From positions 5,900 through 69,899 of the forward strand of contig CAZLYK010000006.1 of NCBI GenBank assembly GCA_964563495.1: DNA of 64,000 bases. Direction: 5' to 3'. The first letter of the stretch is position 1, and the number at the start of each line of letters is the position of its first letter. This DNA is from an uncultured Heliobacteriaceae bacterium. Lineage in GTDB: Bacteria > Acidobacteriota > Blastocatellia > RBC074. The position numbers and the translations under genes were made by a program. This document shows positions 1,367 through 60,263 of the stretch, one piece after another. The notes below the pieces were generated by a model. The model searched no databases, was not told the DNA's origin, and was given only the letters and a program-made list of their open reading frames with translations.

Positions 1367-1448
1367 GTTCCTGAAAAACTTGCCCCTTATATCTGGTGCG
1401 ATGGAATTGATCGTTCGATTCCTCGCACCAGATTTTTTTCGTGGGGGG

Positions 1449-1535
1449 ACAGACAGGATAGACAAGATGGTTGCCGGATTTGACAAGATAGGGGTCTTGT
1501 CAAATCCGGCAACCATCTTGTCTATCCTGTCTATT
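1449..1535. repeat. Palindromic REPIN/MITE-like element E1 (variant termini ACAGACAGGATAGACAAGATGG ... CCATCTTGTCTATCCTGTCTATT)
   Basis: Near-perfect inverted repeat with ~37-nt arms and a 6-nt loop. Right terminus ATCCTGTCTATT is the reverse complement of the family terminus AATAGACAGGAT. Confidence 0.8.
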
Positions 1536-1617
1536 AATTCCCGTGATTGTTAGGCCCGGGAAGGCGGTGGTATAATTCGCCGCATCTGAAAAGACCATCA
1601 CAAGCGACAAACAATCT

Positions 1618-3943: not shown

Positions 3944-3973
3944 AATAGACAGGATAAACAGGATTTTTGCAGG
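3944..3973. repeat. Half-copy E2 (AATAGACAGGATAAACAGGATTTTTGCAGG) abutting the start codon of the next gene
   Basis: Left-arm consensus only. Ends ...GCAGGATG, where the ATG at 3974 is the probable start of the ASPIC gene. Confidence 0.75.
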
Positions 3974-5719
3974 ATGGCACAGGACAAAAGGTTTGCATTG
4001 AGATCTATTTTGCTGGTTGCTGCCCTGAGCTTGGGCAGTTTCATCTACCCCCGGACCATGCCGATTGCGCAGGAGGTTGCGACCCCTGCGCCGGTAACCT
4101 TTACCGAGGTCGATCTCAAGGCCGCCGGTATCAACTGGGTTCACGATAACGGTCGGTCCGAAGCTCGCCACCTGCCCGAGACCTGCGGCGGCGGCGGCGT
4201 CTTCTTTGATTATGACAATGACGGCCTGCTCGATATCTATCTGGTCAATAGCGGGCCGTCGGATTTCTACAAACCGGCCAAACCCGGGCACAATGCGCTC
4301 TACCACAACAACGGCAATGGCACTTTTACCGATGTCAGTGAAAAGGCCGGTGTCGCCTGCGGCGAGGACGGTGATTTCGGGATGGGGGCCGCGGCGGGCG
4401 ATTTCAACGGCGACGGCCGGCAGGATCTGTACGTGACCAATTATGGGCGCAACCGGCTCTTCCAAAATAACGGCAACGGAACTTTCACCGATATCACCGG
4501 GAAGGCCGGGGTGGGTGCGCCGAACTGGTCTACCTGCGCGACCTGGTTCGATTATGACAACGACGGCAAATTGGATCTCTTTGTCTCGAGCTTTGTTCAA
4601 TACAGCGCCAACGGCAGCATCTTTTGCGGCGACAACAAGGCCGGGCGTCGCTACTACTGCATTCCGAGGGTCTTCAAGCCGCGCGCCAGTTTTCTCTTCC
4701 ACAACCAGGGAGACGGGAAATTTGCCGACGTCAGCAAGGCTTCCGGGATCGCTTCAAGTCTTGGCAAATCATTCGGCGCCATCGCGACGGACATCAACAA
4801 CGATGGCCTCATGGACCTCTTTGTCGCCAACGACACGATGGCCAATTTCCTCTTCGTCAACAAGGGTGCGGGCAAGTTCGAAGAGATCGGTCTGGCTTCC
4901 GGAGTCGGTTACAGCGACGCGGGCAGCCCTCGTTCGGGGATGGGGGTCGACGCGACCGATTATGACAACGATGGATGGCAGGACCTCTTCGTCGCCAACA
5001 TCGACCAGGAGCTCTTCAGCCTCTACCATAATGAAAAAGACCTGACCTTTACCGACCAGGCCGGGGAGATCGGCCGGGCCACGCGGTTGCTGAGCGGCTG
5101 GGGGTTGAAATTCTTCGATTACGACAACGACGGCGATCCCGATCTCTTCCTGGCAAACGGCCATCCCGATGATATGGTCGAGATCCAGGTCTCGAGGGTC
5201 AAGTATGCAGAGCCATTGTTGATCTTCGAGAACGTCGATGGCAAATACAGAAACGTCAGCGCTCAGGCGGGAGAAGTGTTCAAGAAGGATTTTCCGGCTC
5301 GAGGCCTTTGCGTCGGCGACATCGACAACGATGGAGATCTGGATGTCCTGGTCATCAACAACGGCGCGGCGCCGGTGCTGCTCCGCAATCAAGCGAAGCC
5401 TCGCCACAACTGGCTCGGGTTGCAGCTGGTCGCGACCAGGAGCAATCCCGGCGCGGTCGGCGCAGTCATGACCTGGACTGCGGCCGGCGGCTTCAAGCGG
5501 ACTCGCTTGAAAACGAGCGGAGGCAGTTATCTGGCTTCGCACGACCCGCGCGAGATTCTGGGCATCGGGCAGGCGGCCAAGATCGATAGCCTTGAGATCA
5601 AATGGCCCTCGGGCAAGGTCGATAAGCTGGCAGACCTGCCGATTAATACCTATGTGCAGGTCGTCGAAGGTCAAGGCATCGTCCAGCCCGCCGCCGCGCC
5701 GGCGGCTAAATCAAAGTGA
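3974..5719 (+). CDS. FG-GAP/VCBS repeat + ASPIC/UnbV domain protein (CRTAC1-like), secreted
   Basis: Probable start [21 protein letters not shown] (signal peptide). The ORF-track start at 3941 reads through the repeat as MNRQDKQDF. Multiple FDYDNDG(x)LD(I/L)(Y/F)V motifs. UnbV/ASPIC-like C-terminus. Confidence 0.75.
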
Positions 5720-7179: not shown

Positions 7180-7237
7180 CAGGATTGACAGGATTGTTGC
7201 AGGACTTGACAAGAAAAATCCCGTCAATCCTGTCTAT
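7180..7237. repeat. Palindromic element E4 (CAGGATTGACAGGATTGTTGCAGGACTTGACAAGA / AAATCCCGTCAATCCTGTCTATT)
   Basis: Left arm truncated (no AATAGA). The right terminus provides the NRQD-stop for the minus-strand gene 7224..9488. Confidence 0.75.
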
Positions 7238-9488
7238 TGCCGGTCTTGAAGGCGCGCAGCGGGCGGACGCGGTAATTCTCCTGACCCTCGATGATTTCGA
7301 TAAACTGGTTGGGTTTGACCTCGTGAAAAACCTGGCGCTGATTGCTTGCCGGCCACCAGACCTCTATCGTTTCGATGCTTGTCGCCCTGCCCAGCCCCGT
7401 CTCCTGCTGAAGCGATGAGGCTCCGAAAGATCCGCCGCTGTTGACCTCGCGGTAACGAATCGACTTTTTCCCGGTCGCATCGATCACCGTCAGTTTGAGC
7501 CGGGCGCCGATCGCTGCCCGGTTCGATTTCTTCCCCGACAATTTGATCGAGATCCAGTTATTGACCCGGCTGGGGTTGGCGAAAAGGACTTTGTTGTACT
7601 CATCGCCCGGCACAAAACCGCCGACGTTGACGAAGATGTCTTCGTCGCCGTCATTGTCCAGATCGCCAAATGCGACTCCGTGACCTTTCTGCAGGTGGCC
7701 GGTGCCGGTGGTCGAGGTGACATCGACGAAACTGTTGCCGCCGCGATTGCGGAAGACGTAGTTCGGCATGAGTGCGGCGAATGACGGGGCTCCGGTGCCC
7801 AGGTATAGATCCAGGTAACCGTCGTTATCCAGATCGCCGAAATTCGCGCCCATCACCGGCACTACGCGGTTGAGTGAAACCCGGCTGGTGACATCCTGAA
7901 AACCGCCTTTGCCGTCGTTCCGATAAAGCTTGATGGTCTCAGCCTGATTGGGGAGCCCGAGAAAGCCCCGCGCCACCTCGGTCACGGACGGGACGAAGCT
8001 GGCGACGAAGAGATCGAGCCATCCGTCGTTGTCGTAATCAAAGAACCAGGTTGGGAAACTCATGAGAGGTTTTTCGACGTGCAGCGTCCTGGCGAGTTCG
8101 GTGAAGGTTCCGTTGCCGTTATTATGGTAGAGGAAATTCTCTTCGCCGTAATTCGACAGGTAGAGGTCCGCGAATCCATCGTTGTCGTAATCACCCCAGG
8201 TTACGCCCTTGGTGAAAGCGCTTCGCCCGACCCCGGCTTTCCGCGAGACGTCTTCAAATGTTCCATCGCCGCGATTGCGAAACAACTGGCTCGGTGTCTG
8301 CTCGTGTCCGACGAAGAGGTCCAGCCAGCCGTCGTGATCATAATCGGCCCACGCCGCACTATGGGTGCGATGGTCACGGCTGGAAAGGCCGCTTTCCAGT
8401 GTGATATCCGTGAACGTACCGTCGCTGTTGCTGCGGAGCAGGGAATTTCGCATCGGAAATTCCCACCCGCCGCGCATGACGAAAATATCCAGGCGGCCGT
8501 CATTGTTGAAATCGGTCTGGGTGCAATTGATGCCGCCGAGCTGATCGCTGAGTTTTGACTTCTCGGTCCAATCGGAAAATGTCCCGTTGCCGTTATTATG
8601 AAAATAGTGCAGTGAATCGCAGGGATTGACGCTTGAGATCACGATATCGAGGAACCCGTCATTATCCATATCGTCCAGGATAGAGCCTCCCGCGGCGCCG
8701 ACCCGGTCGACGCCGAGCGGCGACGCGACATCGACGAAACGGGCGAGCTTTTCTTTCGAGGCCAGGGCCGCCGGTGGGATGAGCCAGGCGGAGGGCACTC
8801 CCTGCGGATATCTGCCGAGCGTCATATAAGCCAGGTTGAGAAGCCAGCGGACTTCCAGATTGCCCGGATTCTGCGCCAGATGCTTCTTGAAATATTCGAT
8901 GGCCCTTTCCGAGCCGATCGTCTGTTTATGCCGGGCGGCTTTGGAGAGCGGGAAGATGCAGGTCTCGGCGTTATGGTTATGCACGCAGTTTTCCAGCTCG
9001 CCTCGCCGCATCCACGCCACGCCGAGAATCTCTTCCATGAAGACCTTGTCGTTGGCAAATTCAGGATGTCTCGAAAGGGAAGAGATGAGCAGCCGGTAGG
9101 CCTCTTCAAACTGCTCTATCGATTTTTCCATCTCCCCGCGATACGCAAAGAGCTGGCCCAGTTCATTGTTGAGCCGAATCATCTCGAGAGCGAATTGGGA
9201 TTTTTTGTCGGACTGGGCGAGTGAATTGAGATAGCCATCTGCGGAGAGGAACGCGCGGCGTTCGGCTTCGCGTCTGGACTGACAGATCGCACCCAGGTCG
9301 GCAGCGTCGGGTTGCTTGAAAAACCTGCTCACCTCGACGCGGCCTGATACCTCAAGCACCACCTGGTAGTCCCCGGCCCCGGGCGCTCTCAGATTCCAGG
9401 TCTGCGCATCGGGAATCTGCCGCCCGTCCTGTGAGAGGGTGGCACAGGCAAGCAGGGCGGCCAGCAGAAGCGAAAAAATTATCCGCAT
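7224..9488 (-). CDS. TPR + FG-GAP/ASPIC-UnbV (CRTAC1-like) secreted protein; C-terminus -TGNRQD*
   Basis: Probable start MRIIFSLLLAALLACATLS (9488). The ORF-track start 9605 extends into the neighbouring gene. FG-GAP motifs (DYDNDG...). Tail encoded by the reverse complement of TCAATCCTGTCTATT. Confidence 0.7.
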   Translation of the reverse strand: MRIIFSLLLAALLACATLSQDGRQIPDAQTWNLRAPGAGDYQVVLEVSGRVEVSRFFKQPDAADLGAICQSRREAERRAFLSADGYLNSLAQSDKKSQFALEMIRLNNELGQLFAYRGEMEKSIEQFEEAYRLLISSLSRHPEFANDKVFMEEILGVAWMRRGELENCVHNHNAETCIFPLSKAARHKQTIGSERAIEYFKKHLAQNPGNLEVRWLLNLAYMTLGRYPQGVPSAWLIPPAALASKEKLARFVDVASPLGVDRVGAAGGSILDDMDNDGFLDIVISSVNPCDSLHYFHNNGNGTFSDWTEKSKLSDQLGGINCTQTDFNNDGRLDIFVMRGGWEFPMRNSLLRSNSDGTFTDITLESGLSSRDHRTHSAAWADYDHDGWLDLFVGHEQTPSQLFRNRGDGTFEDVSRKAGVGRSAFTKGVTWGDYDNDGFADLYLSNYGEENFLYHNNGNGTFTELARTLHVEKPLMSFPTWFFDYDNDGWLDLFVASFVPSVTEVARGFLGLPNQAETIKLYRNDGKGGFQDVTSRVSLNRVVPVMGANFGDLDNDGYLDLYLGTGAPSFAALMPNYVFRNRGGNSFVDVTSTTGTGHLQKGHGVAFGDLDNDGDEDIFVNVGGFVPGDEYNKVLFANPSRVNNWISIKLSGKKSNRAAIGARLKLTVIDATGKKSIRYREVNSGGSFGASSLQQETGLGRATSIETIEVWWPASNQRQVFHEVKPNQFIEIIEGQENYRVRPLRAFKTGNRQD

Positions 9489-14407: not shown

Positions 14408-14487
<80 letters not shown>

Positions 14488-14534: not shown

Positions 14535-14616
<82 letters not shown>

Positions 14617-14624
14617 TTGAAGAT

Positions 14625-14728
14625 AATAGACAGGATTGACAAGATTTTCACAGGATTAAACAGGCTGTTTACTGCCTGGTCTTTGATCCTGTTTAATCCT
14701 GTGAAAATCTTGTCAATCCTGTCTATTT
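14625..14728. repeat. Full palindromic element E5 immediately 3' of tRNA-Asp
   Basis: AATAGACAGGATTGACAAGATTTTCACAGGATTAAACAGG ... CCTGTTTAATCCTGTGAAAATCTTGTCAATCCTGTCTATT. Arms about 45 nt. 8 nt after the tRNA CCA. Confidence 0.85.
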
Positions 14729-14808
14729 TACAATCCAGAGATACGCACGAGCCGCTTCCCGGGTGAAGCGGCTTTTCTGTCTTCAGCATTCCTGACCAGA
14801 GAACTTTT

Positions 14809-16640: not shown

Positions 16641-17471
16641 ATGGAAATAAGCGCGGCCATGAAGAGACTGGAAGAGGCCTTAGCCGAGCACTACGGCTGG
16701 TCGGCCCATCCAGTGACGCGCGAGAAGGTCAACCAGGCGGTGGCGAGCAAGGCCGCCCGGTTGGGAATAGAGCCGCAGGAGTATTGCCGGATTGCCGCCG
16801 GCAGCCAGAGCGAACTGCTCGCCCTGGTCGAAGAGGCCTCGACCGGTCAAACCCACTTTTTCCGCGAGCCCGACCAATTCGCCTGCCTGCGCGCCAGAAT
16901 CCTACCCGAGCTGATCGCCGCCTCTCCAGGGAACGAGAAGGTCCGTTTATGGAGCACCGCCTGTTCGACCGGCGACGAAGCCTACTCGCTGGCCATCAGC
17001 TTCGACCAGGCCCGACCGGAAGAGAGCGAACGACAGGTCGAGGTCTTTGCCACGGACGTCCGCAACAGCGCGCTGCTGGCGGCCAGCCAGGCCCGCTATC
17101 GATCATCCGCGCTGGGCGAGCTTGATGGGCAGGTCAAGGCGAAATATTTCGAGACGGCCTGGGTGGCGGGTGAAGAACAATACACGCTGATTCCGGATAT
17201 CCGTCGCGTCGTCGTCTTCCGGCGTGTCAACCTGCTCGATCGATTGTTTTGGAAAGGCGTGGCGGGCAAGTTCGATCTGATCGTCTGCTCAAATCAACTG
17301 CTCTATCTGCACAGCACAGCGGCGCGGCAGATGGTGGGCAACCTGGTCAACTCGATTCGAGCCGGCGGCTATCTCATGGTTGCGCCGTCCGAGGTCGATC
17401 TGGTCAACTCTTCAGACCTCACACAACTGCCGGAATCCCCTACCTTCTTTCGAAGAAATAGACAGGATTGA
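16641..17471 (+). CDS. CheR-type protein-glutamate O-methyltransferase (orphan); C-terminus -RRNRQD*
   Basis: CheR signatures ([28 protein letters not shown]). No cheB or MCP nearby. Confidence 0.7.
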
Positions 17472-17543
17472 CAGGATTTTTGCAGGATTTGACAAGATCA
17501 GGTCTTGTTCAATCCTGCAAAAATCCTGTCGATCCTCTCTATT
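17457..17543. repeat. Full palindromic element E7
   Basis: AATAGACAGGATTGACAGGATTTTTGCAGGATTTGACAAGAT ... TCTTGTTCAATCCTGCAAAAATCCTGTCGATCCTCTCTATT. The stop of the CheR gene lies inside it. Confidence 0.85.
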
Positions 17544-17545
17544 TT

Positions 17546-17806
17546 TTAGAGTTTCAGCGTTTGGAGGACGATCTCGAGCGAGCGGGCGGCGATATCGCGC
17601 GTGCGTTCGCTCCAGCCCATCTGCTCGCGGTTCTGTTCGTAATCACGACGGACGCGCTCTTTGAGCCGCTCGATGAACTCTTCCGGGTTGGGTGATTTCT
17701 CGATCGCGTGGTCGAGCTCGCGATAGGCGTTATGGATCGTGATCAACCAGTCAGAGGCGTGATATTCGGGCGTCCCTGGTTCAAAAGAGAATTTTGCGGT
17801 TGGCAT
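17546..17806 (-). CDS. Hypothetical small protein (86 aa)
   Basis: ORF only. Stop lies 2 nt past E7. Confidence 0.4.
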   Translation of the reverse strand: MPTAKFSFEPGTPEYHASDWLITIHNAYRELDHAIEKSPNPEEFIERLKERVRRDYEQNREQMGWSERTRDIAARSLEIVLQTLKL

Positions 17807-19776: not shown

Positions 19777-19816
19777 TCTTGTTCAATCCGGCAAAATCCT
19801 GTCAATCCTGTCTATT
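19777..19816. repeat. Right-arm-only element E8 (TCTTGTTCAATCCGGCAAAATCCTGTCAATCCTGTCTATTT)
   Basis: Sits between the esterase stop and the dapD start. Provides the NRQD-stop for the esterase gene. Confidence 0.75.
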
Positions 19817-20497
19817 TAATAGCCATTCGTTGATTAGCGGGTAAGCCTCGCGCGGGACTTCGTGCCCGGCGTCGAAGAGTCGAAATTCCACCGAGCCGGC
19901 ACGGCTTTTGAGGGCTTCGGCGTTTTGTCGCATGCGATCCGCAGTGTAGTACTCGTCGCGTTCGGCGGCGATGTAGAGGACGTCGATCGGCCCGGATTTA
20001 TATTTGTCTTCGCTCCCCCAATCGCTGGGAATACCGCCGCAGATTGCGACCACCCCGCGAACTTTACCGGGGCGGGTAAAAACGTAGCGAAAATTCACGC
20101 CGACGGCCTGTGAAAATCCGAGCAGAAACACTCTGCTCGTCTCGACCAGGCCGGATTTTTCCGCCGAGTCGATCACCTGATCGACGAATCGATGGTGTAA
20201 GGCGATCGAGTCTTCGGATTTGTAATCGCTCAACCAGCCGAATCCATAACCGAGTTTTCGCGATCCCGTCGTCGACATGACCAGATGCTGGTGCGGCCCC
20301 TGGAGGCTGGCGATGGCGAAATCACGTTCATTGATTCGGCGCACGAGCTTCATCATCGAACTCTTATCGCCGCCGTACCCGTGCATCGCGACGATCAGAG
20401 GCTTGGGCAGGGGCTGGCTCGTATCGCCCTCCGGCAGGTAGAGGTCGTAATAGCAGGGAAATTCCTGGACCAGGCGGTGCTCGGTGATTTCAGACAT
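19802..20497 (-). CDS. Alpha/beta-hydrolase (phospholipase/carboxylesterase family); C-terminus -LLNRQD*
   Basis: Esterase-type fold hints (VAMHGYGG, GFSQAVGV). 231 aa. Confidence 0.65.
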   Translation of the reverse strand: MSEITEHRLVQEFPCYYDLYLPEGDTSQPLPKPLIVAMHGYGGDKSSMMKLVRRINERDFAIASLQGPHQHLVMSTTGSRKLGYGFGWLSDYKSEDSIALHHRFVDQVIDSAEKSGLVETSRVFLLGFSQAVGVNFRYVFTRPGKVRGVVAICGGIPSDWGSEDKYKSGPIDVLYIAAERDEYYTADRMRQNAEALKSRAGSVEFRLFDAGHEVPREAYPLINEWLLNRQD

Positions 20498-24590: not shown

Positions 24591-25244
24591 ATGAGACTTG
24601 CAATTGGCAGCATCGTTCAGGCGGTGACAATCTCGTTCATTGTCTCGTCCACTGCTCCGGCTCAATCGGTATCTGCGCCGGATAAGCCGCCGATCGAGAT
24701 TCTCGGCTTCAAGATCGGCTCTGACTATTACCCGATGCTCGACAGCAAGAGCTCGATCACGACAGCCGACAATCCGGATTTCCCCAGGACCGACGCGGAG
24801 AATACAGCCAGGCGCCGGAGGAGCGTGCAGGTGGACGATACCAAATCGCGTGGCAAGCTGAGATCTGAAATCAGGATCATCGATCAGGCGGAGTGGGTCC
24901 AGGTGAATATCAGAAATACCGGCGATAAGGCGATCAGGGTCATCGATTGGGATTTTGCCTTTCCGCGATATGTCGATCGCAAGCTGGAATTGCGCTTCGA
25001 CGTAGTCTCGAGGATCGAGGTTAAGCCCGGCGGCAGGAAGACTCTCAAACAGCCTTTGCCACACGGAGCTACGCGCTGCAAGACCATGACCGTCGGCGCT
25101 GCAGAGATCCAGTCCGCCAAGCCCAGTACATTCGAAGCGGTTTGCGGCCCCGGCGTCCACGATCCATCTAACCTCAAGCAGGAGAGCGTGATCATCAAAC
25201 GGATCGAGTATCAGGACGGCTCGGTCTGGAATAGACAGGATTAA
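24591..25244 (+). CDS. Secreted hypothetical protein (217 aa); C-terminus -SVWNRQD* (TAA stop from GATTAA variant)
   Basis: Signal peptide. No recognizable domain. Tail from AATAGACAGGATTAA. Confidence 0.5.
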   Translation: MRLAIGSIVQAVTISFIVSSTAPAQSVSAPDKPPIEILGFKIGSDYYPMLDSKSSITTADNPDFPRTDAENTARRRRSVQVDDTKSRGKLRSEIRIIDQAEWVQVNIRNTGDKAIRVIDWDFAFPRYVDRKLELRFDVVSRIEVKPGGRKTLKQPLPHGATRCKTMTVGAAEIQSAKPSTFEAVCGPGVHDPSNLKQESVIIKRIEYQDGSVWNRQD

Positions 25245-25459
25245 CAGGATTTCACCGGATTATAGCAATTTTCACATTTGTGCGGCCGCGTCCTCGCGGC
25301 CGCACAAATGTGAAAATTGCTGCTGCAGGGAAAGCATTGATCGATGACCAATGCTATCAACGCGGTTTCAGTTTCGTGCATCCTGTCAGTCGCCCTCCCT
25401 AACGGTCGTGCGTCTGACAGGATGCACGAAACTGAAAGCCGCTGTAATCCTGTCTATTT
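25230..25459. repeat. Composite ~230-bp element E9: family termini flanking three internal hairpins (H1 28-bp perfect palindrome containing GCGGCCGC, linker IR, H2)
   Basis: AATAGACAGGATTAACAGGATTTCACCGGATT...AATTTTCACATTTGTGCGGCCGCG|CGCGGCCGCACAAATGTGAAAATT...GCGGTTTCAGTTTCGTGCATCCTGTCAG...CTGACAGGATGCACGAAACTGAAAGCCGC...TAATCCTGTCTATTT. Supplies a stop at both ends (TAA for 24591..25244, TAG for 25454..27832). Confidence 0.8.
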
Positions 25460-27832
25460 TTCTCCGCCGATCCGAATTCGCATTCCGCCAGAAAAATTGA
25501 GTCGATAGGCTCGATATCCCAGCACTTCCTGGAAATCCTGGTTGAGCAGGTTTTCGATTCTGAGGAAGATCGTCAAACGCGAATTCACGCGATAACTGCC
25601 GGCGAGATCGAGTTTGGCGTAGCCGCCGTTATAGATCGGCCGCCCGCCGGCGTCGAAGCGGGTGAAGAGCACCGGGTCGAGATCGCGGCGCTTTCCGCTG
25701 AAGAATCCATCCAGATTGAGATCCCATTTATTTCCGAGCAGTGTGAGGTTGATCGAGCCCGAATGGCGGGGCCGGCGCAAGAGTGGAAGCGCCACTTCGC
25801 GATTCGGGACCAGAGTATTGGTGTTGAAATCGATGACCTCGGCCGCCGAAACGAGCTTGGTTTTGAGAAAGGTGTAATTTCCGCTGAAGATGACTCTGTG
25901 GCCGGGGCGGGCGGTGGCCGCGATCTCATAGCCATAGCTGCGGCTGCGATCGTTATTAATAAAGTGCGTCAGACGGCCATCGGCGAGTTTGACGGGGCCG
26001 CCAAAGGTTGATGGTTCGGCGACGAAGGCGATCTGGTCGCGGAAGTGGTTGTCGAAATAGGTGATCTCGACTCGATAGCGATCTCTCATGAAGAACTGAT
26101 CGATGCCGATGTCGAAGCTGCGCGACCGTTCGGGCTTCAAACCCGGATTGCCCAGGAAGAACGGGTTCGGGCTGAAGGCTTCGATCAGTGTCGGGGCCTT
26201 GATGCCCTCGCCGTAATTGACGCGCAGGCGCGTCGGGCCCCTGCGGCTTTGAATGCCGCTCTGCCTGACCACCCAGGTCAGGGAGGCTTTCGGGACGACC
26301 TGCCTGCCGAACCCGACTTCGCCCGTGTACGCAGCCGAGCCCAGCTTGCTCAGAATCTGCGCCAGGCCGGCGGGGAGATCGGCGATGTTCTTCTCCCAGC
26401 GCAATCCGGTGTTGATGAAGAGTCGCGAGCCGAGTGCAAATTGATCCTGGACGTAAATGCCGGTGTTCGTCCGCTCGGAGGCGACTCGATTGATTCCGGC
26501 AAAACCATTATCGAAGACGGCCGACTCCTGCTCGTAATCGATGCCGGCCGAAATAAAATGCCCACTCTCGATGATGTAATCGCTCTGGTAGCGCACCCCC
26601 CGGCGGCGCTGGTGGTTATTGAAGTTCGAGGAGAAATCGTTAAAGGCGGAGAAGGTGTCGACCGGGGTGCCGGGTCTTGACAGATCCTGAGCGACCGGAT
26701 CGAAGCTGTTTTGATTGTTCTCGGAAAAGGCGAAGGTCAAACTCTGGCGCCAGTATTTGGTCGTCTGGTCTTCGAGGCGCGCTCCGAGGGCGATCCGCTT
26801 ACGCTCGATCCGCTCATCCGGATCCGGAAACAGGAACGCGGTCGCGCCCGGGACGCCGGCGCCCGATGTCTCATTTCTGGTGGTCAGGCGAAGCTGGGTG
26901 CGCTCATTGAAGCGATACCCCAGATTGGCCGTCGCGATCCGGTTTTGATAATCGTCGTTGCGGTCGCGGCCATCGGTGCGTAGATGGGTGAAGCCGGCCG
27001 AGTAGTCGAACGATTTGTAGAGCCCGGAGAGCCGGGCGAACTGGCGATTGAAAGCGAAGCTGCCGCCCTCGCCCGTAAATTCGAATTCAGGGGTCGAAGA
27101 GACCCCGCGACGGGTGAAGAACTGGAGCACACCCGAGATCGCGTCTGAGCCGTAAATCGCGCTTTGTGCGCCACGGACGAGCTCGACCTGGGCGGCGTTA
27201 TCGGTTGTCAGGTCGGCCAGATCGAAAGATCCTCCGGCGTCGTTGGCCGGAACCCCATCGATCAGGACCTTGGTGTAATCGGACTCGCCGCCCCGCAGAA
27301 AGAGCGAGGCGACTCCACCGCGCCGCGCCGTCTGAACCACAGTCACACCGGGTGAAGCGCGCAGTGCGTCGAAGACGGAGATTCGCTGGGCGCGCAGAAG
27401 ATCCGCGCCCGAAGCAACAAAGGCGCTCATCGAGGTTTCGCTCAGACGCGAATCGGTCCGCGTCGCCGAGACGATCAGTCGATCTTCGATCGCCGAAAAA
27501 TTGAGAGTCACGATTCCCGCCAGATCACGACCGGCTTCGACCTTGACCGGTTGTGCGCCTCCAGTTTGGGTCAAGCCCGCGGCCTCGACCGAGATCGAGT
27601 ATTCGCCGGGTTTCAAATCGACGAAATAGAATTCGCCACGCTCGTTGGTGCGCGTTTCGCGAACGGCCACACGATTGAGTAAGAGCAGCACGACGCGCGC
27701 GTCGCGAATTACTCCGCCTCTGGGATCGGTCACGACCCCTCGGATCGACCCGGTCGTCCCCTGAGCCAGAGCGCTCAGAGACAGGATGCAGATCAAGGTC
27801 AGGCTTGCCAGCGATCTGATGATTGAATTCAT
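25454..27832 (-). CDS. TonB-dependent receptor (CarboxypepD_reg + plug + barrel), likely the BtuB-like cobalamin receptor of the downstream btu operon
   Basis: Signal peptide. GSIRGVVTDPRGGVIRDARVVLL. Last gene of the operon with btuF/C/D-like genes under a B12 riboswitch. TAG stop taken from the repeat terminus. Confidence 0.75.
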   Translation of the reverse strand: MNSIIRSLASLTLICILSLSALAQGTTGSIRGVVTDPRGGVIRDARVVLLLLNRVAVRETRTNERGEFYFVDLKPGEYSISVEAAGLTQTGGAQPVKVEAGRDLAGIVTLNFSAIEDRLIVSATRTDSRLSETSMSAFVASGADLLRAQRISVFDALRASPGVTVVQTARRGGVASLFLRGGESDYTKVLIDGVPANDAGGSFDLADLTTDNAAQVELVRGAQSAIYGSDAISGVLQFFTRRGVSSTPEFEFTGEGGSFAFNRQFARLSGLYKSFDYSAGFTHLRTDGRDRNDDYQNRIATANLGYRFNERTQLRLTTRNETSGAGVPGATAFLFPDPDERIERKRIALGARLEDQTTKYWRQSLTFAFSENNQNSFDPVAQDLSRPGTPVDTFSAFNDFSSNFNNHQRRRGVRYQSDYIIESGHFISAGIDYEQESAVFDNGFAGINRVASERTNTGIYVQDQFALGSRLFINTGLRWEKNIADLPAGLAQILSKLGSAAYTGEVGFGRQVVPKASLTWVVRQSGIQSRRGPTRLRVNYGEGIKAPTLIEAFSPNPFFLGNPGLKPERSRSFDIGIDQFFMRDRYRVEITYFDNHFRDQIAFVAEPSTFGGPVKLADGRLTHFINNDRSRSYGYEIAATARPGHRVIFSGNYTFLKTKLVSAAEVIDFNTNTLVPNREVALPLLRRPRHSGSINLTLLGNKWDLNLDGFFSGKRRDLDPVLFTRFDAGGRPIYNGGYAKLDLAGSYRVNSRLTIFLRIENLLNQDFQEVLGYRAYRLNFSGGMRIRIGGEK

Positions 27833-30714: not shown

Positions 30715-30925
30715 CAGACGCTCAGGTTGAAAGTTGAGCGTCTGGGGCTTCCCGGAAATCAAAAGGCAAGAAGGCTCGCCGCGGGGAGTTCAATCCCCGG
30801 GTTCACTCCGCCGCACCCTTTCAACCGAAGAGTCGTCGAAAAACCTTCAGGCAGGTCTCCTGGCTCAGCAAGCGGAAAATTTTAAAATCAATCTGAAATT
30901 TTCCCGATCAAGACCACCTTCTCGC
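30715..30925 (-). promoter_or_regulatory. Cobalamin (AdoCbl) riboswitch controlling the btuF-C-D-receptor operon
   Basis: B12 box on the minus strand (GCCAGGAGACCTGCC, reverse complement of 30850-30864). 5' GGTGG...GGGAA element (reverse complement of about 30895-30918). 14-bp perfect expression-platform hairpin (30730-30768) immediately upstream of the start codon. Confidence 0.65.
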
Positions 30926-31323
30926 GCTTCAAGCGCAATGGATATCGGGCGTTGATCAGCTTGTCTTTACAGTGGCGGTGACCGCGTGGGATTTTCACCC
31001 ACCTTCCCTATTCTCCCGAATTTCGATAGTGACTACGGGCACCTGAAGGTGTTGAGAAAGATCGTCTCCAGGAAATAACTGTCACCCTACCACGTGACGG
31101 AGGTCAGAGTCAATAATTCCGGGCGCGCAAAAAAAAGCTTGAGCATTGGGCGGTAAAAGTTGTAAAAATACCCGCCCGACGGCGCATCAAGCAGAACCTC
31201 TGACCGGCATCAGGGAAATTCGACAGCTCAAGGCCGTTCAAAACTAGAGATCCAACGATCCCGATCTCGCCCCTACCGAATTAGTTCGCACTTTTCAGGA
31301 AAACATTTGAAAGGGAAAAATCT

Positions 31324-39295: not shown

Positions 39296-40255
39296 TTGGT
39301 AAGATCTATCATGCTCAAACATCCATTAACACGGATCGATCGCGATCAAAATCTGCGCCGGGAGCTGCTCGCTTACTGTCGCCTCAAACCGGGCCAGGTC
39401 TGGCGGGATCGGCGGAGCGGTCATCGCGTCGGATGCCTGGACGCGGCCTCGCGCCGGGACGTCTTGAAACTGAGCGGAAAATCCCGCGCTTCGCTCGCGA
39501 TCCACGATTTGCCTTATAACTTTATCGCTTTCGAGCAGCGAAGGGTCGATGATTTCATCGAATGGTGCCGGCAGGTGATCAGCCACACCGACGAAGCCCT
39601 GCTCGACGATAGCAGCCTCTACCTATGGATCGGGGCGGATCAACGGGCGGGGTTCGCACCGCTGCCCGAACTCATGTTGATGATGCGGGAGACAAATTTC
39701 ACTTCGCGCAGCTTGATCACCATGCGCAACCAACGCGGTTACGGCACGCAGAAAAACTGGATGAGCGTCCGGCAGGAACTGCTCTATTACACCAAAGGGA
39801 AGCCCCGCTTTGTTCCCCAGTATACCGGGATCCCCAAGACGTTGAGGGGCTATTACAAAGAGATCAACGGCCAGATGACCGAGAATACCGCGCGTGGTCG
39901 GTCTGAGACGCTTCGCGCCGGCAACGTCTGGATCGATGTCCAGCAGGTGTTTTATCGCATGGAAGAGAATGTCAATGGATGTTACGCGCAGAAGCCGCTC
40001 AAGTCGATCGAGCGGATCATCGCGGCCAGCTCGTCACCGGGAGATATCGTGCTCGATCTCTTCGCGCATTCAGGGACGACGCTGCTCGCCGCCGAGATGC
40101 TCGGTCGCGTCTGTTATACCCTCGAGATAGACCCGATCTTTTGTGAGATCACGATTCGGCGCCTCGAGCATTTTCGCCGGACCGGACGAACCGGCTGGCA
40201 GAACAGCAATCCATTTGCTCACGAGTTGGGCCAAACAGGAGGTCAAGATGAGTAA
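39296..40255 (+). CDS. Orphan beta-class DNA amino-methyltransferase (N6-adenine or N4-cytosine)
   Basis: Motif IV DLPYN precedes motif I DLFAHSGTT (beta-class order). N-terminal GQVW...GHRVGCLDA typical of this family. No restriction endonuclease gene adjacent. Confidence 0.75.
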   Translation: MVRSIMLKHPLTRIDRDQNLRRELLAYCRLKPGQVWRDRRSGHRVGCLDAASRRDVLKLSGKSRASLAIHDLPYNFIAFEQRRVDDFIEWCRQVISHTDEALLDDSSLYLWIGADQRAGFAPLPELMLMMRETNFTSRSLITMRNQRGYGTQKNWMSVRQELLYYTKGKPRFVPQYTGIPKTLRGYYKEINGQMTENTARGRSETLRAGNVWIDVQQVFYRMEENVNGCYAQKPLKSIERIIAASSSPGDIVLDLFAHSGTTLLAAEMLGRVCYTLEIDPIFCEITIRRLEHFRRTGRTGWQNSNPFAHELGQTGGQDE

Positions 40256-40883
40256 TGCGTTTTGGAAATTGATGACCGTAATTCTCCTGGTTTTCGCCCT
40301 CGCGGCGATCTATTTTATGTTCGGTGGGAAGCAACTCTACGATCTCTTCATTCCCCGTGGCGACGTCCTGAAGACGGCTACCAGCACCCTGCTCAGGATC
40401 GAGCGCGAAAACAGCCTGGTTACCACCACGGCTTATGTCCAGGCGGTCGTCCGGCAGAAGGACATTCAATGGTACGGCGACGCTCAGGTCGTCCGGATCG
40501 TTCCGGCGAAGATCCACTACGCCGTCAACCTGGCTGAAATCGATCCTCACGCCATGGAGTACGACGAAAAGGCCAGGGTGCTATACGTGCCTCTGCCCGA
40601 TATCAAAATTCAATCGATCGATCCCGATCTGACCAAAGCCGAGGTCATCCGGAGCATTGACCTCTTTCGATCGGAGTCCCTGACCGGCAACGTCCTGGAA
40701 GATACGACTGAAAAGATGGTCCGCCCGACCCTCGAAGAGATGGGAAAATCCCCGGATATCACCAGGATCGCGAGAGATCAGGCGCTGCTATCGGTCAAGC
40801 AGCTGCTCGAATCGGCGCTCAATGCGACCGGATCACGAGTCCAGGTCCGCCCGTATTTCAAAAGCGAGGGCAAAAAAGCATGA
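40248..40883 (+). CDS. N-terminally membrane-anchored hypothetical protein (DUF4230-like?), translationally coupled to the methyltransferase
   Basis: SD AGGAGG at 40238-40243. ATGAGTAA overlap with the upstream stop. Single TM (LMTVILLVFALAAIYFMF). Confidence 0.5.
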   Translation: MSNAFWKLMTVILLVFALAAIYFMFGGKQLYDLFIPRGDVLKTATSTLLRIERENSLVTTTAYVQAVVRQKDIQWYGDAQVVRIVPAKIHYAVNLAEIDPHAMEYDEKARVLYVPLPDIKIQSIDPDLTKAEVIRSIDLFRSESLTGNVLEDTTEKMVRPTLEEMGKSPDITRIARDQALLSVKQLLESALNATGSRVQVRPYFKSEGKKA

Positions 40884-40884
40884 C

Positions 40885-41117
40885 AAATAGACAGGATTGA
40901 CAGGATTTGAACAGGATTACAGCGGCTTTCAGGTTCGTGCGTCCCGTCAGACGCACGACCGTCAGGGAGGGCGTCTGACAGGATGCACGAACCTGAAAAC
41001 CGCACCGGTAACATTGGTCATCAATCAATGCTTACCCTGTGGCAGCGATTTTCACGTTTGTGCGACCGCGAGGACGCGGTCGCACAAACGTGAAAATCGC
41101 TATAAACAGGATAGCTT
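40885..41117. repeat. Composite ~230-bp element E10: same three-hairpin core as E9, in the opposite orientation relative to its termini
   Basis: AAATAGACAGGATTGACAGGATTTGAACAGGATT + H2' + linker' + H1' (GATTTTCACGTTTGTGCGACCGCG|CGCGGTCGCACAAACGTGAAAATC) + TATAAACAGGATAGC. Differences from E9 are largely compensatory within the hairpins. Confidence 0.8.
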
Positions 41118-41157
41118 GAGGAAGGATAAGTAAGGATTAGCCACCATTGCTTTAATT

Positions 41158-42120
41158 ATGAGCACGACTGAACCAACGGAGAAAGTCTCAACCTGGCGTC
41201 CTGAAGTGGCGTTGATTACCCTGGCCTTGATGTGGGGGACTTCCCACGTCATCTCGAAAGACATCCTCTCTACGCATTCACCATCTTTTTACACCAGCGT
41301 GCGATTCGGAATTGCCGCGATCTGCTTTGGACTGATGTTCGCCGGCCATCTTGGGCGGAGCAGCCGCAAGGCGGTGATTCAGGGTGTGCTGCTGGGGTTG
41401 TGCAGTTTTACCGGCATCGCTTTTTATGTGGTCGGGCTGGGTTTCACCCAGGCTTCAAAAGCCGGCTTTATCACCGGTCTCTACCTGGTCTTTACGCCTT
41501 TGCTGGCTTATCTGATCTTTCGGGCGCGACCGGCGCGCGATCATCTGGTCGGGCTCGCCATCGCCCTCGGAGGCTTTATCCTGCTCAGTTTTCCGCGCGG
41601 CGGCGAATCGATCAATTGGGGCGATTTGCTGATTTTGCTGGCGGCCGTGGCCTGGGCCTCGCATATCGCCGCGACCAGCGCTTTTGCCCGTCAGAGCGAT
41701 GTCAGGACTCTGGCGGCGGTGCAGGTGATCACGGTCGCCGGCCTGGCGATCAGCGTTCACCTGGCGCTCAAATCATTCGGCGCAGAGACCCAGCCCAACC
41801 CCCTCAATTGGCGGTTCGCCTGGCAGATCGCTTATATGGCGGTCATGGTGACCTTTGTCGCCGCTTTGGTCCAGACCTGGGCACAGAGAGGTGTCCCCTC
41901 AACCCACGCGGCGATCCTTTATGCCCTCGAACCGGTCACCGCCGCGGCCTTTGCCTATCTGGCTTTTGGCGAAAAATTGGGCTTGATCCGGGGAATCGGC
42001 GCAACGCTCATCCTCGCCGGCGTCATGGTTTCCCGGCTCAAACTCGCAACCCGCATAATCGGCCAGTTTTGGGAGGCAAACCGGCTGGGCGGCTGGGCGA
42101 CGGGGCGACGGGGCGACTGA
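41158..42120 (+). CDS. EamA/DMT-superfamily transporter (10 TM)
   Basis: Two EamA-like halves. Hydrophobic throughout. Confidence 0.7.
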   Translation: MSTTEPTEKVSTWRPEVALITLALMWGTSHVISKDILSTHSPSFYTSVRFGIAAICFGLMFAGHLGRSSRKAVIQGVLLGLCSFTGIAFYVVGLGFTQASKAGFITGLYLVFTPLLAYLIFRARPARDHLVGLAIALGGFILLSFPRGGESINWGDLLILLAAVAWASHIAATSAFARQSDVRTLAAVQVITVAGLAISVHLALKSFGAETQPNPLNWRFAWQIAYMAVMVTFVAALVQTWAQRGVPSTHAAILYALEPVTAAAFAYLAFGEKLGLIRGIGATLILAGVMVSRLKLATRIIGQFWEANRLGGWATGRRGD

Positions 42121-42520: not shown

Positions 42521-42883
42521 GTGACTAAAGTCATGATCGTGGATGACGTTGAAGGCGTCCGCCGGATGCTCATCTACGCACTCGAAGATGATTACACCAT
42601 TACCCAGGCCTCGAATGGCCTGGAGGCGGTGACGCTCGCCGAGACCGAGCGGCCGGACGTGATCGTCATGGACCTGGACATGCCGGTCATGGATGGAGTC
42701 GAGGCCACCCGCCGGATCAAGTCGGATCCAGAGCTCTCCCACATCAAAGTGCTCGCCGTTTCGGGTCAGAACAACAGCGAGAAATCGCGGCTGGTCAAAG
42801 ACAATGCCGACGCCTTCATCGAAAAACCCTTCCTGATCACCGACCTGGTCGAGGCCGTCAGACGCCTGGCGATAGAAAAATAG
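42521..42883 (+). CDS. Single-domain CheY-like response regulator (receiver only); TAG stop taken from repeat E11
   Basis: MIVDD...D(57-like)...K receiver signature (VIVMDLDMPVMDG). 120 aa. Confidence 0.75.
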   Translation: MTKVMIVDDVEGVRRMLIYALEDDYTITQASNGLEAVTLAETERPDVIVMDLDMPVMDGVEATRRIKSDPELSHIKVLAVSGQNNSEKSRLVKDNADAFIEKPFLITDLVEAVRRLAIEK

Positions 42884-42981
42884 ACAGGATTAACAGGATT
42901 TCACCGGATTAAACAGGATCTACCTGGCCGGTTTGGCTGATCCTGTTTAATCCGGTGAAATCCTGTTAATCCTGTCTATTT
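42878..42981. repeat. Full palindromic element E11
   Basis: AAATAGACAGGATTAACAGGATTTCACCGGATTAAACAGGATC ... GATCCTGTTTAATCCGGTGAAATCCTGTTAATCCTGTCTATTT. Lies between the stop of the response regulator and the stop of the convergent cytochrome gene. Confidence 0.85.
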
Positions 42982-42982
42982 C

Positions 42983-43966
42983 TTAGCCGGAAGACGGGAA
43001 GACCTTGAAATCATTGCGCGTGTGACATTTGTTGCACGAGCCTCCGCCTTGACTGCCGGGTTCGCCGCTGAAGACCTTCCGCCCATAATGCATTCCGCCG
43101 TCGTGACAGCTGAAACACCCGCGACCGCTGCGCTCGGCCGGGCTGATATGCTGTTTGACTTTTAACGAGGTCGGAGTCGGTTGATTGTAACCGCCAGAGA
43201 TCGTGTGGCACATGTCGCACTTGCCGTTCATGTAGCCGACGTGCGATTTGTGCGTGAAGAGCGCGCCATACGCCCGGCTGACGTATTTGGCTGAAAACGG
43301 CTGGGCGCCGGAGACCACGGCGGTGTGGCAGGCGACGCACCCCGATTTTTGAGCCGCCTTTTGATCAGTGCTTGCCGGCGAATGGCAGAGATAGCATTCC
43401 GGATGTGCAGCGATGGTCAGGACGGCCGGCCTGGGTTCCTGTCTATGGCAGAAGTTGCAGTTCAGTTTTTCTACGGACCGCGGCATGTTGTAGCCCGCGT
43501 GCAGTTCGTGCTGGCGCGCATCGAAGAGCGCATTGAAATCGGATCGCTGCGGAAAGTCGCGCTGGGGCGGGCGCGCGGGTAATTCCGCCGGCTGTCCGCC
43601 TCTCGTTTCGTGACAGATGGTGCAGGTCTGCTGCGGTTGCGCGGTGAATTGCGAGATGTGGCATTCGACGCAGGCTTTATGCCCGGGGAACCTGAGGCTC
43701 AGCTGTTGATTGCGTGCCGTTGTCTCGACCAGACCGGTGATCGGGTCGCGCCGATCGTGACACGATTCGCATTTCAGTACGCGAGCGTGATTGGTGCCGG
43801 GTACGCTGATCGTGCCGAGGTGCGATTTATGGGTGAACCGCTCGTAGTTTTTCGGCGGCTGGCCCGCCGGATTCTGCTCACCCTGCGCGAGCGGGGGCTT
43901 GAACAGGTTTAGGCAAACAGCCAGGCTGCAGCAGACCAGCACAATTTTGATTCTCTCGATCGACAT
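42983..43966 (-). CDS. Nonaheme c-type cytochrome (9 CxxCH), periplasmic/secreted
   Basis: Probable start MSIERIKIVLVCCSLAVCL. CESCH, CVECH, CTICH, CNFCH, CYLCH, CVACH, CDMCH, CFSCH, CNKCH. Two FTHKSH motifs. Confidence 0.8.
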   Translation of the reverse strand: MSIERIKIVLVCCSLAVCLNLFKPPLAQGEQNPAGQPPKNYERFTHKSHLGTISVPGTNHARVLKCESCHDRRDPITGLVETTARNQQLSLRFPGHKACVECHISQFTAQPQQTCTICHETRGGQPAELPARPPQRDFPQRSDFNALFDARQHELHAGYNMPRSVEKLNCNFCHRQEPRPAVLTIAAHPECYLCHSPASTDQKAAQKSGCVACHTAVVSGAQPFSAKYVSRAYGALFTHKSHVGYMNGKCDMCHTISGGYNQPTPTSLKVKQHISPAERSGRGCFSCHDGGMHYGRKVFSGEPGSQGGGSCNKCHTRNDFKVFPSSG

Positions 43967-47622: not shown

Positions 47623-47756
47623 CTTCTTTCCCTCGGGGAAGCTCGTAGAGATCTGATCAACCTTGGGGCGCAGGAAAAACTGTAGGCTTCAAGAGAGAAC
47701 GGGCAAGACTATAGCCTCTAACGACGCAATGCCGCAAGCAAAAAATCCAGAATAAA

Positions 47757-47861
47757 GTAGACGGGATTAACAGGATTTAAAGAGGGTTAAACTAGATCAT
47801 AGACAAACCAGAAAAACATCCTGTTCAATCCTCCTGAAATCCTGTTAATCCTGTCTGTATT
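47757..47861. repeat. Degenerate palindromic element E12 in the divergent promoter region of the cytochrome cluster
   Basis: AGTAGACGGGATTAACAGGATTTAAAGAGGGTTAAAC ... ATCCTGTTCAATCCTCCTGAAATCCTGTTAATCCTGTCTGTATT. Recognizable termini, diverged interior. Confidence 0.7.
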
Positions 47862-48068
47862 AAAGATATCTCTAAAATCAATGATTGACTTAATTTGAAA
47901 AGCTGTGTTATCAACCAAATATCTTTGAACGCGAGGCCACACTGTTGCTGTGGTTTTTTAAGCCGTTTCTTGCTAGTGCCCTGCGTTGCCTAATTGCTCA
48001 CTCGTTCTCCCAGCTTTATCCCCTGACAGGCCGGTATTATTTTTGGCCGGGTTATTGGAGACAGATCA

Positions 48069-58544: not shown

Positions 58545-58583
58545 AATAGACAGGATTGACAAGACCCGTCAATCCTGTCTATT
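58545..58583. repeat. Minimal hairpin element E15 (AATAGACAGGATTGAC-AAGACCC-GTCAATCCTGTCTATT)
   Basis: 16-bp perfect arms with a 7-nt loop, 2 nt after the TAA of the GMC oxidoreductase gene. Confidence 0.85.
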
Positions 58584-60173: not shown

Positions 60174-60263
60174 CATGATTTTTGCAGGATTGAGCAGGAT
60201 ATTTTTCTGCCTCGTCTTTGATCCTGTTTAATCCTGCAAAAATCATGTCAATCCTGTCTATTT
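60159..60263. repeat. Full palindromic element E16
   Basis: AATAGACAGGATTGACATGATTTTTGCAGGATTGAGCAGGAT ... GATCCTGTTTAATCCTGCAAAAATCATGTCAATCCTGTCTATTT. Gives NRQD-TGA to the plus-strand gene and TAG to the minus-strand glpD. Confidence 0.85.

Follow-up and report, generated by a model that had tools for sequence, protein, structure and literature searches.

A hairpin-ended repeat inserted at TTAA and nested in a widespread palindromic repeat is probably a non-autonomous mobile element

The 64,000-nucleotide stretch analyzed here (positions 5,900 to 69,899 of contig CAZLYK010000006.1, assembly GCA_964563495.1; hereafter the window) contains two composite repeats, E9 and E10, in which an abundant palindromic intergenic repeat, termed family-1, hosts a non-coding core that folds into three hairpins (H1, a linker hairpin, and H2). 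We propose, with a probability of roughly 0.6, that this core is an independent non-autonomous mobile element, similar to a MITE (a small transposable element with inverted repeats), that targets TTAA, is nested in family-1, and is moved by a TA-duplicating transposase acting in trans. Analysis of its copies reveals that the core exists in several copies at non-homologous sites, that its removal restores the host consensus, and that its hairpins persist through matched changes in the two partners of stem pairs. The core is a previously undescribed small mobile-element family of a known general type. The features of the two composite repeats are the following, in window coordinates.

25230–25459: E9, composite repeat made up of host repeat and core
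25230–25262, plus strand: family-1 left arm of the E9 host, AATAGACAGGATTAACAGGATTTCACCGGATTA, with 100% identity to 42879–42911
25261–25262: left TA of E9, the final two bases of the host left arm, abutting the core
25263–25444, plus strand: E9 core, in the order H1-linker-H2, with ends TAGCAATTTTCA... and ...TGAAAGCCGCTG
25263–25322, plus strand: hairpin H1 of E9, arms 25263–25290 and 25295–25322, loop TCCT at 25291–25294
25333–25355, plus strand: linker hairpin of E9, 25333–25339 (AGCATTG) with 25349–25355 (CAATGCT), 9-nt loop
25362–25442, plus strand: hairpin H2 of E9, arms 25362–25389 and 25414–25442, one bulged C
25445–25459, plus strand: right TA of E9 (25445–25446) and TAATCCTGTCTATTT, the terminal 13 nt of the right arm of family-1
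40885–41117: E10, composite repeat made up of host repeat and core
40886–40919, plus strand: E10 host, family-1 left arm only, AATAGACAGGATTGACAGGATTTGAACAGGATTA, with the left TA at 40918–40919
40920–41102, plus strand: E10 core, 183 nt, in the order H2-linker-H1
40922–40950 with 40975–41003, plus strand: hairpin H2 of E10
41010–41016 with 41026–41032, plus strand: linker hairpin of E10
41044–41070 with 41075–41101, plus strand: hairpin H1 of E10, loop AGGA
41103–41140, plus strand: right flank of E10, TA at 41103–41104, then AACAGGATAGC, then degenerate AGGAT units
25380–25389 with 25414–25423 (E9) and 40941–40950 with 40975–40984 (E10): apical stem of H2, family-1 unit ATCCTGTC ... GACAGGAT facing outward

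The coordinates and the three-hairpin anatomy proposed for E9 and E10 in an earlier note, made from the sequence alone, are borne out by this analysis. The core measures 182 nt in E9 and 183 nt in E10 and lies in opposite chromosomal orientations in the two, the reverse complement of E9 aligning with E10 over about 190 nt, from ACAGGATTA to GCTATAA; a repeat search lists this inverted match with 85% complementarity over arms of 114 nt and 93% over arms of 88 nt. H1 of E9 is formed by 28 pairs, one of them a terminal T.G, and carries two GCGGCCGC sites. H2 of E9 encloses a 24-nt spacer (25390–25413) containing the conserved motif CCTCCCTAACGGTCG, that is, the complement of CGACCGTCAGGGAGG on the strand read from H2 to H1, with one difference in E9. 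The family-1 unit GACAGGAT is present in the apical stem of H2 in E9, and the outward-facing family-1 units of the H2 apex flank the conserved loop motif CGACCGTCAGGGAGG. The predicted folds are very stable, with −141.6 kcal/mol for E9 (z = −18.0) and −134.2 kcal/mol for E10 (z = −13.9), none of 200 shuffles being as stable in either case. DNA folding parameters give the three hairpins again, the copies available as DNA, including the metagenomic copy L102 described below, behaving alike (z = −16.8 and −18.3). The core is non-coding, all six frames being broken by stops or by the indel between E9 and E10, and the open reading frames (ORFs) called over its copies in databases conserve neither frame nor extent; a small coding ORF was rejected on the ground that frames are not conserved.

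Outside E9 and E10, the core motifs (H1, linker, and H2) do not occur in the rest of the window. Further copies were reached by way of protein databases, in which the translated core served to look for spurious ORFs; this yielded four (P0001, P0122, P0123, and P0125, the last two by profile search with the translated core) and brings the total to six. P0122 is an MnmE (MnmE/TrmE) GTPase of 551 aa from an NCBI contig of 44,965 bp, whose 93-residue N-terminal extension reads through the core; residues 1–93 are translated family-1 and core DNA, an annotation artefact arising from an upstream start call. The DNA of P0125 was recovered as positions 620–802 of L102, a scaffold of 1,097 bp from an ENA metagenome. 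The same profile also matched P0124 (1082 aa) weakly (E = 1e-6, 13 stretches), a protein of 13 tandem 81-residue units with NQCRTSFHVCAS that may be a tandem array of related hairpin sequence or a chance match. On L102, the region upstream of the core (430–600) holds a GC-rich simple repeat of GCGGCGACGC units and an inverted repeat GAGCACGGAGAG ... CTCTCCGTG, which suggests further repeat families on this scaffold. The junctions of the additional copies, read from back-translation or, for L102, from the DNA, are the following.

P0001: left GATCCTGTT-TA, core H2 to H1, right TA-ATCCGGTGGAAATCC; in a family-1 right arm
P0122: left AAATCCTGT-TA, core H2 to H1, right TA-ATCCTGTCTATTTACC; at the outermost TTAA of a family-1 right arm
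P0123: left junction not covered, core ending in H1, right TA-ATCCTGTCTATTTACC; site type as in P0122
L102: left cgatt-TA, core H2 to H1, right TA-agtaag; outside any family-1 arm

The six copies have different flanks and occupy non-homologous sites, five of them in family-1 arms, and all six conform to the arrangement T-TA-core-TA-A, the left flank being NTTA. In E10, the junction reads ...GAACAGGAT-TA-core-TA-AACAGGATAGC and the two flanks form one continuous family-1 left arm; AACAGGATAGC carries on the same arm in direct orientation, the inverted right arm being absent. At three sites (E10, P0001, and P0122), taking out the core together with one TA brings back the family-1 consensus: the joined flanks of E10 read GGATTAAACAGGAT, as in the sibling copies at 14650–14668 and 42904–42920, and the reconstructed empty sites of P0001 and P0122 read GATCCTGTTTAATCCGG and AAATCCTGTTAATCCTGTCTATTT, respectively. 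In these reconstructions the filled site contains exactly one extra TA. Equivalent sites are occupied in both orientations, H1 adjoining TAATCCTGTCTATTT in P0122 and H2 adjoining it in E9. The ends of the core are imperfect terminal inverted repeats, the first 24 nt agreeing with the reverse complement of the last 24 at 15 (E9), 18 (E10), and 16 (L102) positions. Concerning the preference for family-1, the window holds 71 TTAA sites, 30 of which lie outside ORFs and 12 of these 30 within family-1 arms; given this supply, the chance of finding five of six copies in such arms is about 0.04. We consider that the landing of the core in family-1 arms is explained mainly by these arms holding approximately 40% of the scarce intergenic TTAA. 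Active targeting of the arms was considered and rejected, since TTAA supply covers most of the preference.

Among the candidates put forward in the earlier note, a composite MITE with a second palindromic module thus comes closest, except that the module is not captured: the core is an independent element with its own ends of about 24 nt, flanked by TA within TTAA in six of six copies and occurring at varied sites in both orientations. The same note had described the core as flipped between E9 and E10. The two cores do lie in opposite chromosomal orientations, but the flip is no more than relative: E10 possesses a single family terminus, and H2 adjoins TAATCCTGT in both copies when viewed from the core.

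In order to follow the stems, five copies were aligned (the reverse complement of E9, E10, L102, and N-masked back-translations of P0001 and P0122). Over the 63-pair structure, 97.3% of the cells are paired and 12 pairs, seven in H2 and five in H1, have changed on both sides, a number that none of 500 shuffles matches; controls in which the partner was slid by 1–3 columns give 0–1 such pairs and 30–44% pairing. The linker hairpin, with 92% of its cells paired, displays no covariation. Between E9 and E10 alone, four pairs (three in H1, one in H2) changed on both sides and are still paired, among them the two paired differences quoted in the earlier note, and four others are altered on one side or by a gap. 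The unmatched changes of E10 amount to one G.T and three C.A/A.C cells, so that the arm differences previously read as G:U-compatible do not point to either strand consistently. L102 differs from E9 at 27% of the columns and still adopts the same fold, with 10 pairs changed on both sides and three non-Watson-Crick cells. The copies known as protein conform as well: in the true register, P0001, P0122, and P0123 contain no forced non-Watson-Crick pair, whereas shifted registers force such pairs at 22–28 of 63 positions (P0001, P0122) or 9–18 of 33 (P0123). In P0122, the pair 18/69 went from G-C to A-T through the replacements R to H and T to M; in P0123, the pair 143/164 changed on both sides and the peptides CLSA and MRSD permit a fully complementary inner stem, unlike the GCGGCCGCG of E9. 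That stem complementarity is actively preserved is thus supported. Some constraint on the core is likely too: the frequency of change in stem pairs is about half that of unpaired columns, and the H2 apex is conserved in sequence.

The H1 loop reads AGGA in five copies and TTCT in L102, which corresponds to the inverted loop TCCT plus one transition. Replication template switching is described in two reports (PMC8604942, PMC8794818) as homogenizing the arms of inverted repeats, inverting their spacers, and creating and maintaining hairpins; the inverted loop of L102 is in line with such arm homogenization and spacer inversion. The earlier note had taken the paired differences as a sign of selection on secondary structure. 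Whereas the preserved complementarity stands, the core does not stand alone in this: six window copies of family-1 have 12 of 43 pairs altered on both sides, and covariation is therefore, here, a property of palindromic mobile DNA.

The host repeat family-1 is an abundant, MITE-like palindromic intergenic repeat of about 100 nt with termini AATAGACAGGATT... and ACAGGATT-like units every 9–11 nt. The window contains 31 occurrences of ACAGGATT, where 1.3 would be expected, and no fewer than 13 copies of family-1, whole or partial; besides the two composites, these include the following.

Window 1446–1537, 3944–3990, 7180–7240, 14622–14730, and 17454–17546: family-1 copies, first set
Window 19777–19817, 42876–42983, 47753–47862, 58546–58582, and 60156–60265: family-1 copies, second set

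The copies at 14622–14730, 42876–42983, 1446–1537, and 60156–60265 are near-perfect palindromes whose 38–48-bp arms differ from copy to copy. Arm self-complementarity reaches 90–100% in five of the six full window copies vs. about 73% in other genomes. A 22-nt exact terminal pattern matches at least 96 stretches of species-representative genomes from many phyla (loci L002–L097), including the archaeon Ca. Methanoperedens BLZ2 and the isolate Thiobaca trueperi, and similar intergenic, unannotated elements are carried by Thiodictyon and Spirosoma plasmids (L103, L104). The matches across phyla are all intergenic and all unannotated; the elements are mostly 70–125 nt long, the longer ones having unrelated or nested interiors. 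Among these matches we saw no associated transposase, no recurrent gene adjoining solitary family-1 ends, and no pair of termini enclosing a gene at the kilobase scale, and literature searches with terminal sequence strings returned unrelated primers only. The conservation across domains of a non-coding repeat of about 100 nt is more surprising than the nested core. In the window, two tRNA genes (14408–14480 and 14540–14613) are followed 8 nt later by the perfect family-1 palindrome 14622–14730.

The distribution of the core is a different one. A covariance model of the core scores 207–212 bits on the three DNA copies (E9 208, E10 212) and found no further copy over 754 kb, composed of the window and 99 loci and taking in the 96 loci of other phyla with family-1; all remaining matches are hairpin noise (E ≥ 0.05). 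Exact-pattern scans with the H2 arm in genome and metagenome contigs, a scan of viral contigs with the H1 arm, and blastn of the core against plasmid and phage collections gave no match, and blastn against the 96 family-1 loci retrieved the shared termini only. In metagenomes, the linker had a single match, within an unrelated coding sequence, which was dismissed as chance. Unlike family-1, the core is therefore rare, being confined to the window lineage and one metagenome scaffold.

Relatives without the element are available for the E10 region. Proteins 100% identical to the EamA protein of the window were found only on one NCBI contig of 72,626 bp and one Logan contig, and the next relatives, at 78% identity, are named as Acidobacteriota/Blastocatellia. 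Two loci (L099 and L100) are syntenic with the E10 region (methylase, DUF4230, EamA, response regulator, cytochromes); their DUF4230-EamA spacer measures 70 nt, the core is absent, and ACAGGATT is absent in 21 kb. Judged from this synteny, the insertion of the core is lineage-specific, the corresponding site being empty of both elements. As for E9, the sole indexed contig with the TonB receptor gene of the window is the Logan contig L001 (SRR14932634; 5303–5331), which ends 29 nt into the E9 query, i.e. in the family-1 terminus and the first core bases, as expected because short-read assembly breaks at repeats.

These observations can be accommodated in the following scheme. Two family-1 copies would each have received an insertion of the unrelated 182–183-bp non-coding core, whose ends (YAGCRNNTTTCA...GTGCR) are the imperfect inverted repeats of about 24 nt described above. 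Either end pairs with its own internal inverted copy, giving the end-hairpin H2, the linker hairpin, and the end-hairpin H1, and the core would enter TTAA in either orientation, leaving a TA on each side. TA duplication marks the IS630/Tc1-mariner class, and mobility would be provided in trans by a TA-duplicating transposase, most likely a DDE enzyme of this type encoded elsewhere in the genome. The complementarity of the arms may be maintained by arm-to-arm homogenization through template switching, by selection for the fold-back form, or by both. The effect on the host would be passive, in that read-through transcripts of neighbor genes would carry 26–29-bp duplexes, and the element itself would not be an independent RNA gene.

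Several points weigh against the core being such a nested, trans-mobilized element. There is no transposase in the 64 kb of the window, which contain only ordinary chromosomal genes, and the enzyme class is suggested solely by the TA/TTAA target and the inverted-repeat ends. A TA duplication and a TA owned by one end would be indistinguishable by sequence, both giving a TTAA empty site. We know of no need, in cut-and-paste DDE elements, for ends held in near-perfect 27–29-bp hairpins. E9 is not a clean insertion: once the core is taken out, the family-1 arms that are left measure 33 nt (left) and 15 nt (right), which calls for either an additional deletion or a host of a short variant form. 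P0001, P0122, and P0123 are known as protein translations only, which do not fix their third codon positions, and may come from genomes other than that of the window. Finally, the H2 apex TCCTGTCAG..CGACCGTCAGGGAGG..CTGACAGGA is conserved in sequence, of which neutral homogenization gives no account. A further reading, which we regard as rather doubtful, takes the core not as a plain cut-and-paste MITE but as a hairpin-dependent mobile module, read as single-stranded DNA or RNA, that would be a hyper-parasite on the machinery or landing sites of another non-autonomous element: the conserved apex would then include the cross-phylum recognition unit of family-1, GACAGGAT, and the long perfect hairpins would be needed for movement.

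A serious alternative, though an unlikely one in our estimation, considers the core as a hairpin-dependent single-stranded DNA transposon, either palindrome-associated as in IS200/IS605 or REPIN-like, moved by an HUH/Y1 tyrosine transposase, in which case insertion would occur 3' of TTA without duplication and one TA would be owned by the element. The large hairpin at each end separated by a linker, the outer-stem motif common to both hairpins, and the TA/TTAA flanks, formally compatible with zero duplication, agree with it, as do covarying stems with a conserved loop and apical sequence, such as a structure-reading enzyme would impose. On the other hand, known Y1 systems have short (about 10–15 bp), imperfect hairpins located some distance inside the ends, whereas the core stems measure 27–29 bp, are nearly perfect, and start 0–2 nt from ends that are themselves ordinary imperfect inverted repeats; the core is, moreover, symmetric. 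Compensatory changes are reported to be common in REPINs (PMC3116915), which speaks for such a transposon. Both orientations are found at the palindromic TTAA and neither a Y1 nor a RAYT gene is present in the 64-kb window, which speaks against it; so does the syntenic relative without the element, REPIN families being described as mostly vertically inherited. More improbable still is a structured non-coding RNA passenger, whether a small RNA or part of an mRNA acting in cis, with selection on the RNA fold producing the covariation. The very stable folds, the 12 covarying pairs, and the conserved 15-nt loop motif with GGGAGG (CCUCCC on the opposite strand) would all suit an RNA, and at least the E10 and P0122 copies lie where read-through from neighbor genes is expected. 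However, at the gathering score, Rfam 15 recognizes nothing in the window beyond a cobalamin riboswitch and two tRNAs, permissive Rfam scans of E9 and E10 return only microRNA-hairpin models far below threshold, and neither promoter-like nor terminator-like sites exist in 25100–25600 and 40750–41250. Single-side changes yield G.T and C.A on the same strand, so that neither strand is consistently wobble-compatible, the orientation with respect to neighbor genes varies (convergent genes at E9, co-directional genes at E10), covariation is as strong in the host palindromes, the element is missing from a relative that shares the gene order, and the core behaves as a TA-flanked insertion. The passenger RNA proposed in the earlier note is consequently not supported. 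An intrinsic terminator was also rejected, the same two intervals being devoid of terminator-like sites, and a retron-like msr/msd was set aside in view of the missing reverse transcriptase gene and of the short intergenic gaps in which both copies lie.

The two remaining explanations had likewise been raised in that note. A cruciform-forming recombination site, flipping in place between inverted family-1 arms, would account for the different orientation of the core relative to the long left arm in E9 and E10 and for the one copy (L102) with an inverted H1 loop. Yet E10 lacks the inverted right arm that would serve as recombination partner, the core presents H2 to TAATCCTGT in E9 and E10 alike, the other copies lie elsewhere in the arm and one outside any arm, and no recombinase gene is nearby; independent insertions explain the difference in orientation without inversion in place, which we hold to be very improbable. 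Two decaying copies of one composite repeat, with differences matched by chance, would fit the presence of only two copies in the window. This last reading is already refuted, and we give it practically no credence: four of the eight differing stem pairs changed on both sides and are still paired, four extra copies keep the fold, and none of 500 shuffles reaches the observed covariation.

Regarding the genomic context, the genes on either side of E9 converge, and those flanking E10 run in the same direction. The stop codon TAA (25242–25244) of the ORF 24591–25244 falls within the family-1 left arm of E9, and the stop codon TAG (25454–25456) of the TonB-dependent receptor gene 25454–27832 (minus strand) falls within the right arm, so that the stop codons of both convergent neighbors are supplied by family-1 termini. 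Further along, a cobalamin riboswitch (30833–31061, 102 bits) stands upstream of a periplasmic binding protein gene and of further genes encoding a FecCD permease, an ABC ATPase, and a TonB-dependent receptor; the segment 25454–31061 (minus strand) looks like a B12 uptake operon whose final gene abuts E9. Near E10, the methylase ORF (39296–40255) and the DUF4230 ORF (40143–40883) overlap by about 110 nt when each is counted from its earliest possible start. The same two genes overlap by only 8 nt in L099, a relative, and the DUF4230 start in the window is therefore probably further downstream.

A bacterial intergenic repeat that covaries strongly and folds very stably cannot on these grounds alone be called a structured RNA gene. 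The same signal is present in the neighboring palindromes and is likewise expected for hairpin-forming mobile DNA and for the homogenization of inverted repeats by template switching. The core is real, but as selfish DNA it is of a fairly ordinary kind, its design being unusual in that each terminal repeat is held within its own long hairpin. With covarying stems, a conserved loop, a single inverted loop, and a number of diverged copies, it offers a compact natural test bed for fold-back selection vs. arm homogenization. On the practical side, such repeats break short-read assemblies, as illustrated by the Logan contig ending inside E9, and they create spurious or extended database ORFs, for instance the MnmE protein lengthened by 93 residues.

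Among known systems, TA-flanked bacterial MITEs (Correia/CREE of Neisseria, ERIC-type, RUP, and Nezha) are like the core small (about 100–200 bp), non-coding, and intergenic; they end in terminal inverted repeats, are predicted to fold very stably, and have both filled and empty sites among relatives. The general features of MITEs and the 5'-TA-3' flanks of ERIC-type elements have been described (PMC3184786). In contrast to these elements, the ends of the core do not pair together, each forming its own 27–29-bp hairpin with the linker hairpin in addition; no parent insertion sequence is known, none with the ends of the core being present in the window, and no similarity was detected in plasmid, phage, and viral collections. 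BIMEs are hairpin clusters separated by linkers, which the core resembles. REPINs and BIMEs, moved by RAYT, share with it the nature of hairpin-forming intergenic mobile DNA whose transposase is not in or beside most copies. The frequent compensatory hairpin changes of REPINs (PMC3116915) are a further likeness. The core is distinguished from REPINs by its TA flanks in TTAA and its far longer, nearly perfect stems; moreover, no conserved GTAG-type foot motif was seen in it, the RAYT gene is absent from the window, few copies were found, and the syntenic relative is empty. Palindrome-associated elements of IS200/IS605 are non-coding derivatives with a hairpin near each end, in which structure and not sequence is recognized. 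Their hairpins are short, imperfect, and strand-specific and they insert without duplication, whereas the core has inverted-repeat ends and is found in both orientations at the palindromic TTAA. The use of a repeat family as landing site, finally, is shared with IS1397 and IS621, which insert into REP sequences, and with nested MITEs (PMC3184786); compared with these, the preference of the core is largely a matter of TTAA supply and does not require active recognition of the repeat, and the core is itself non-autonomous.

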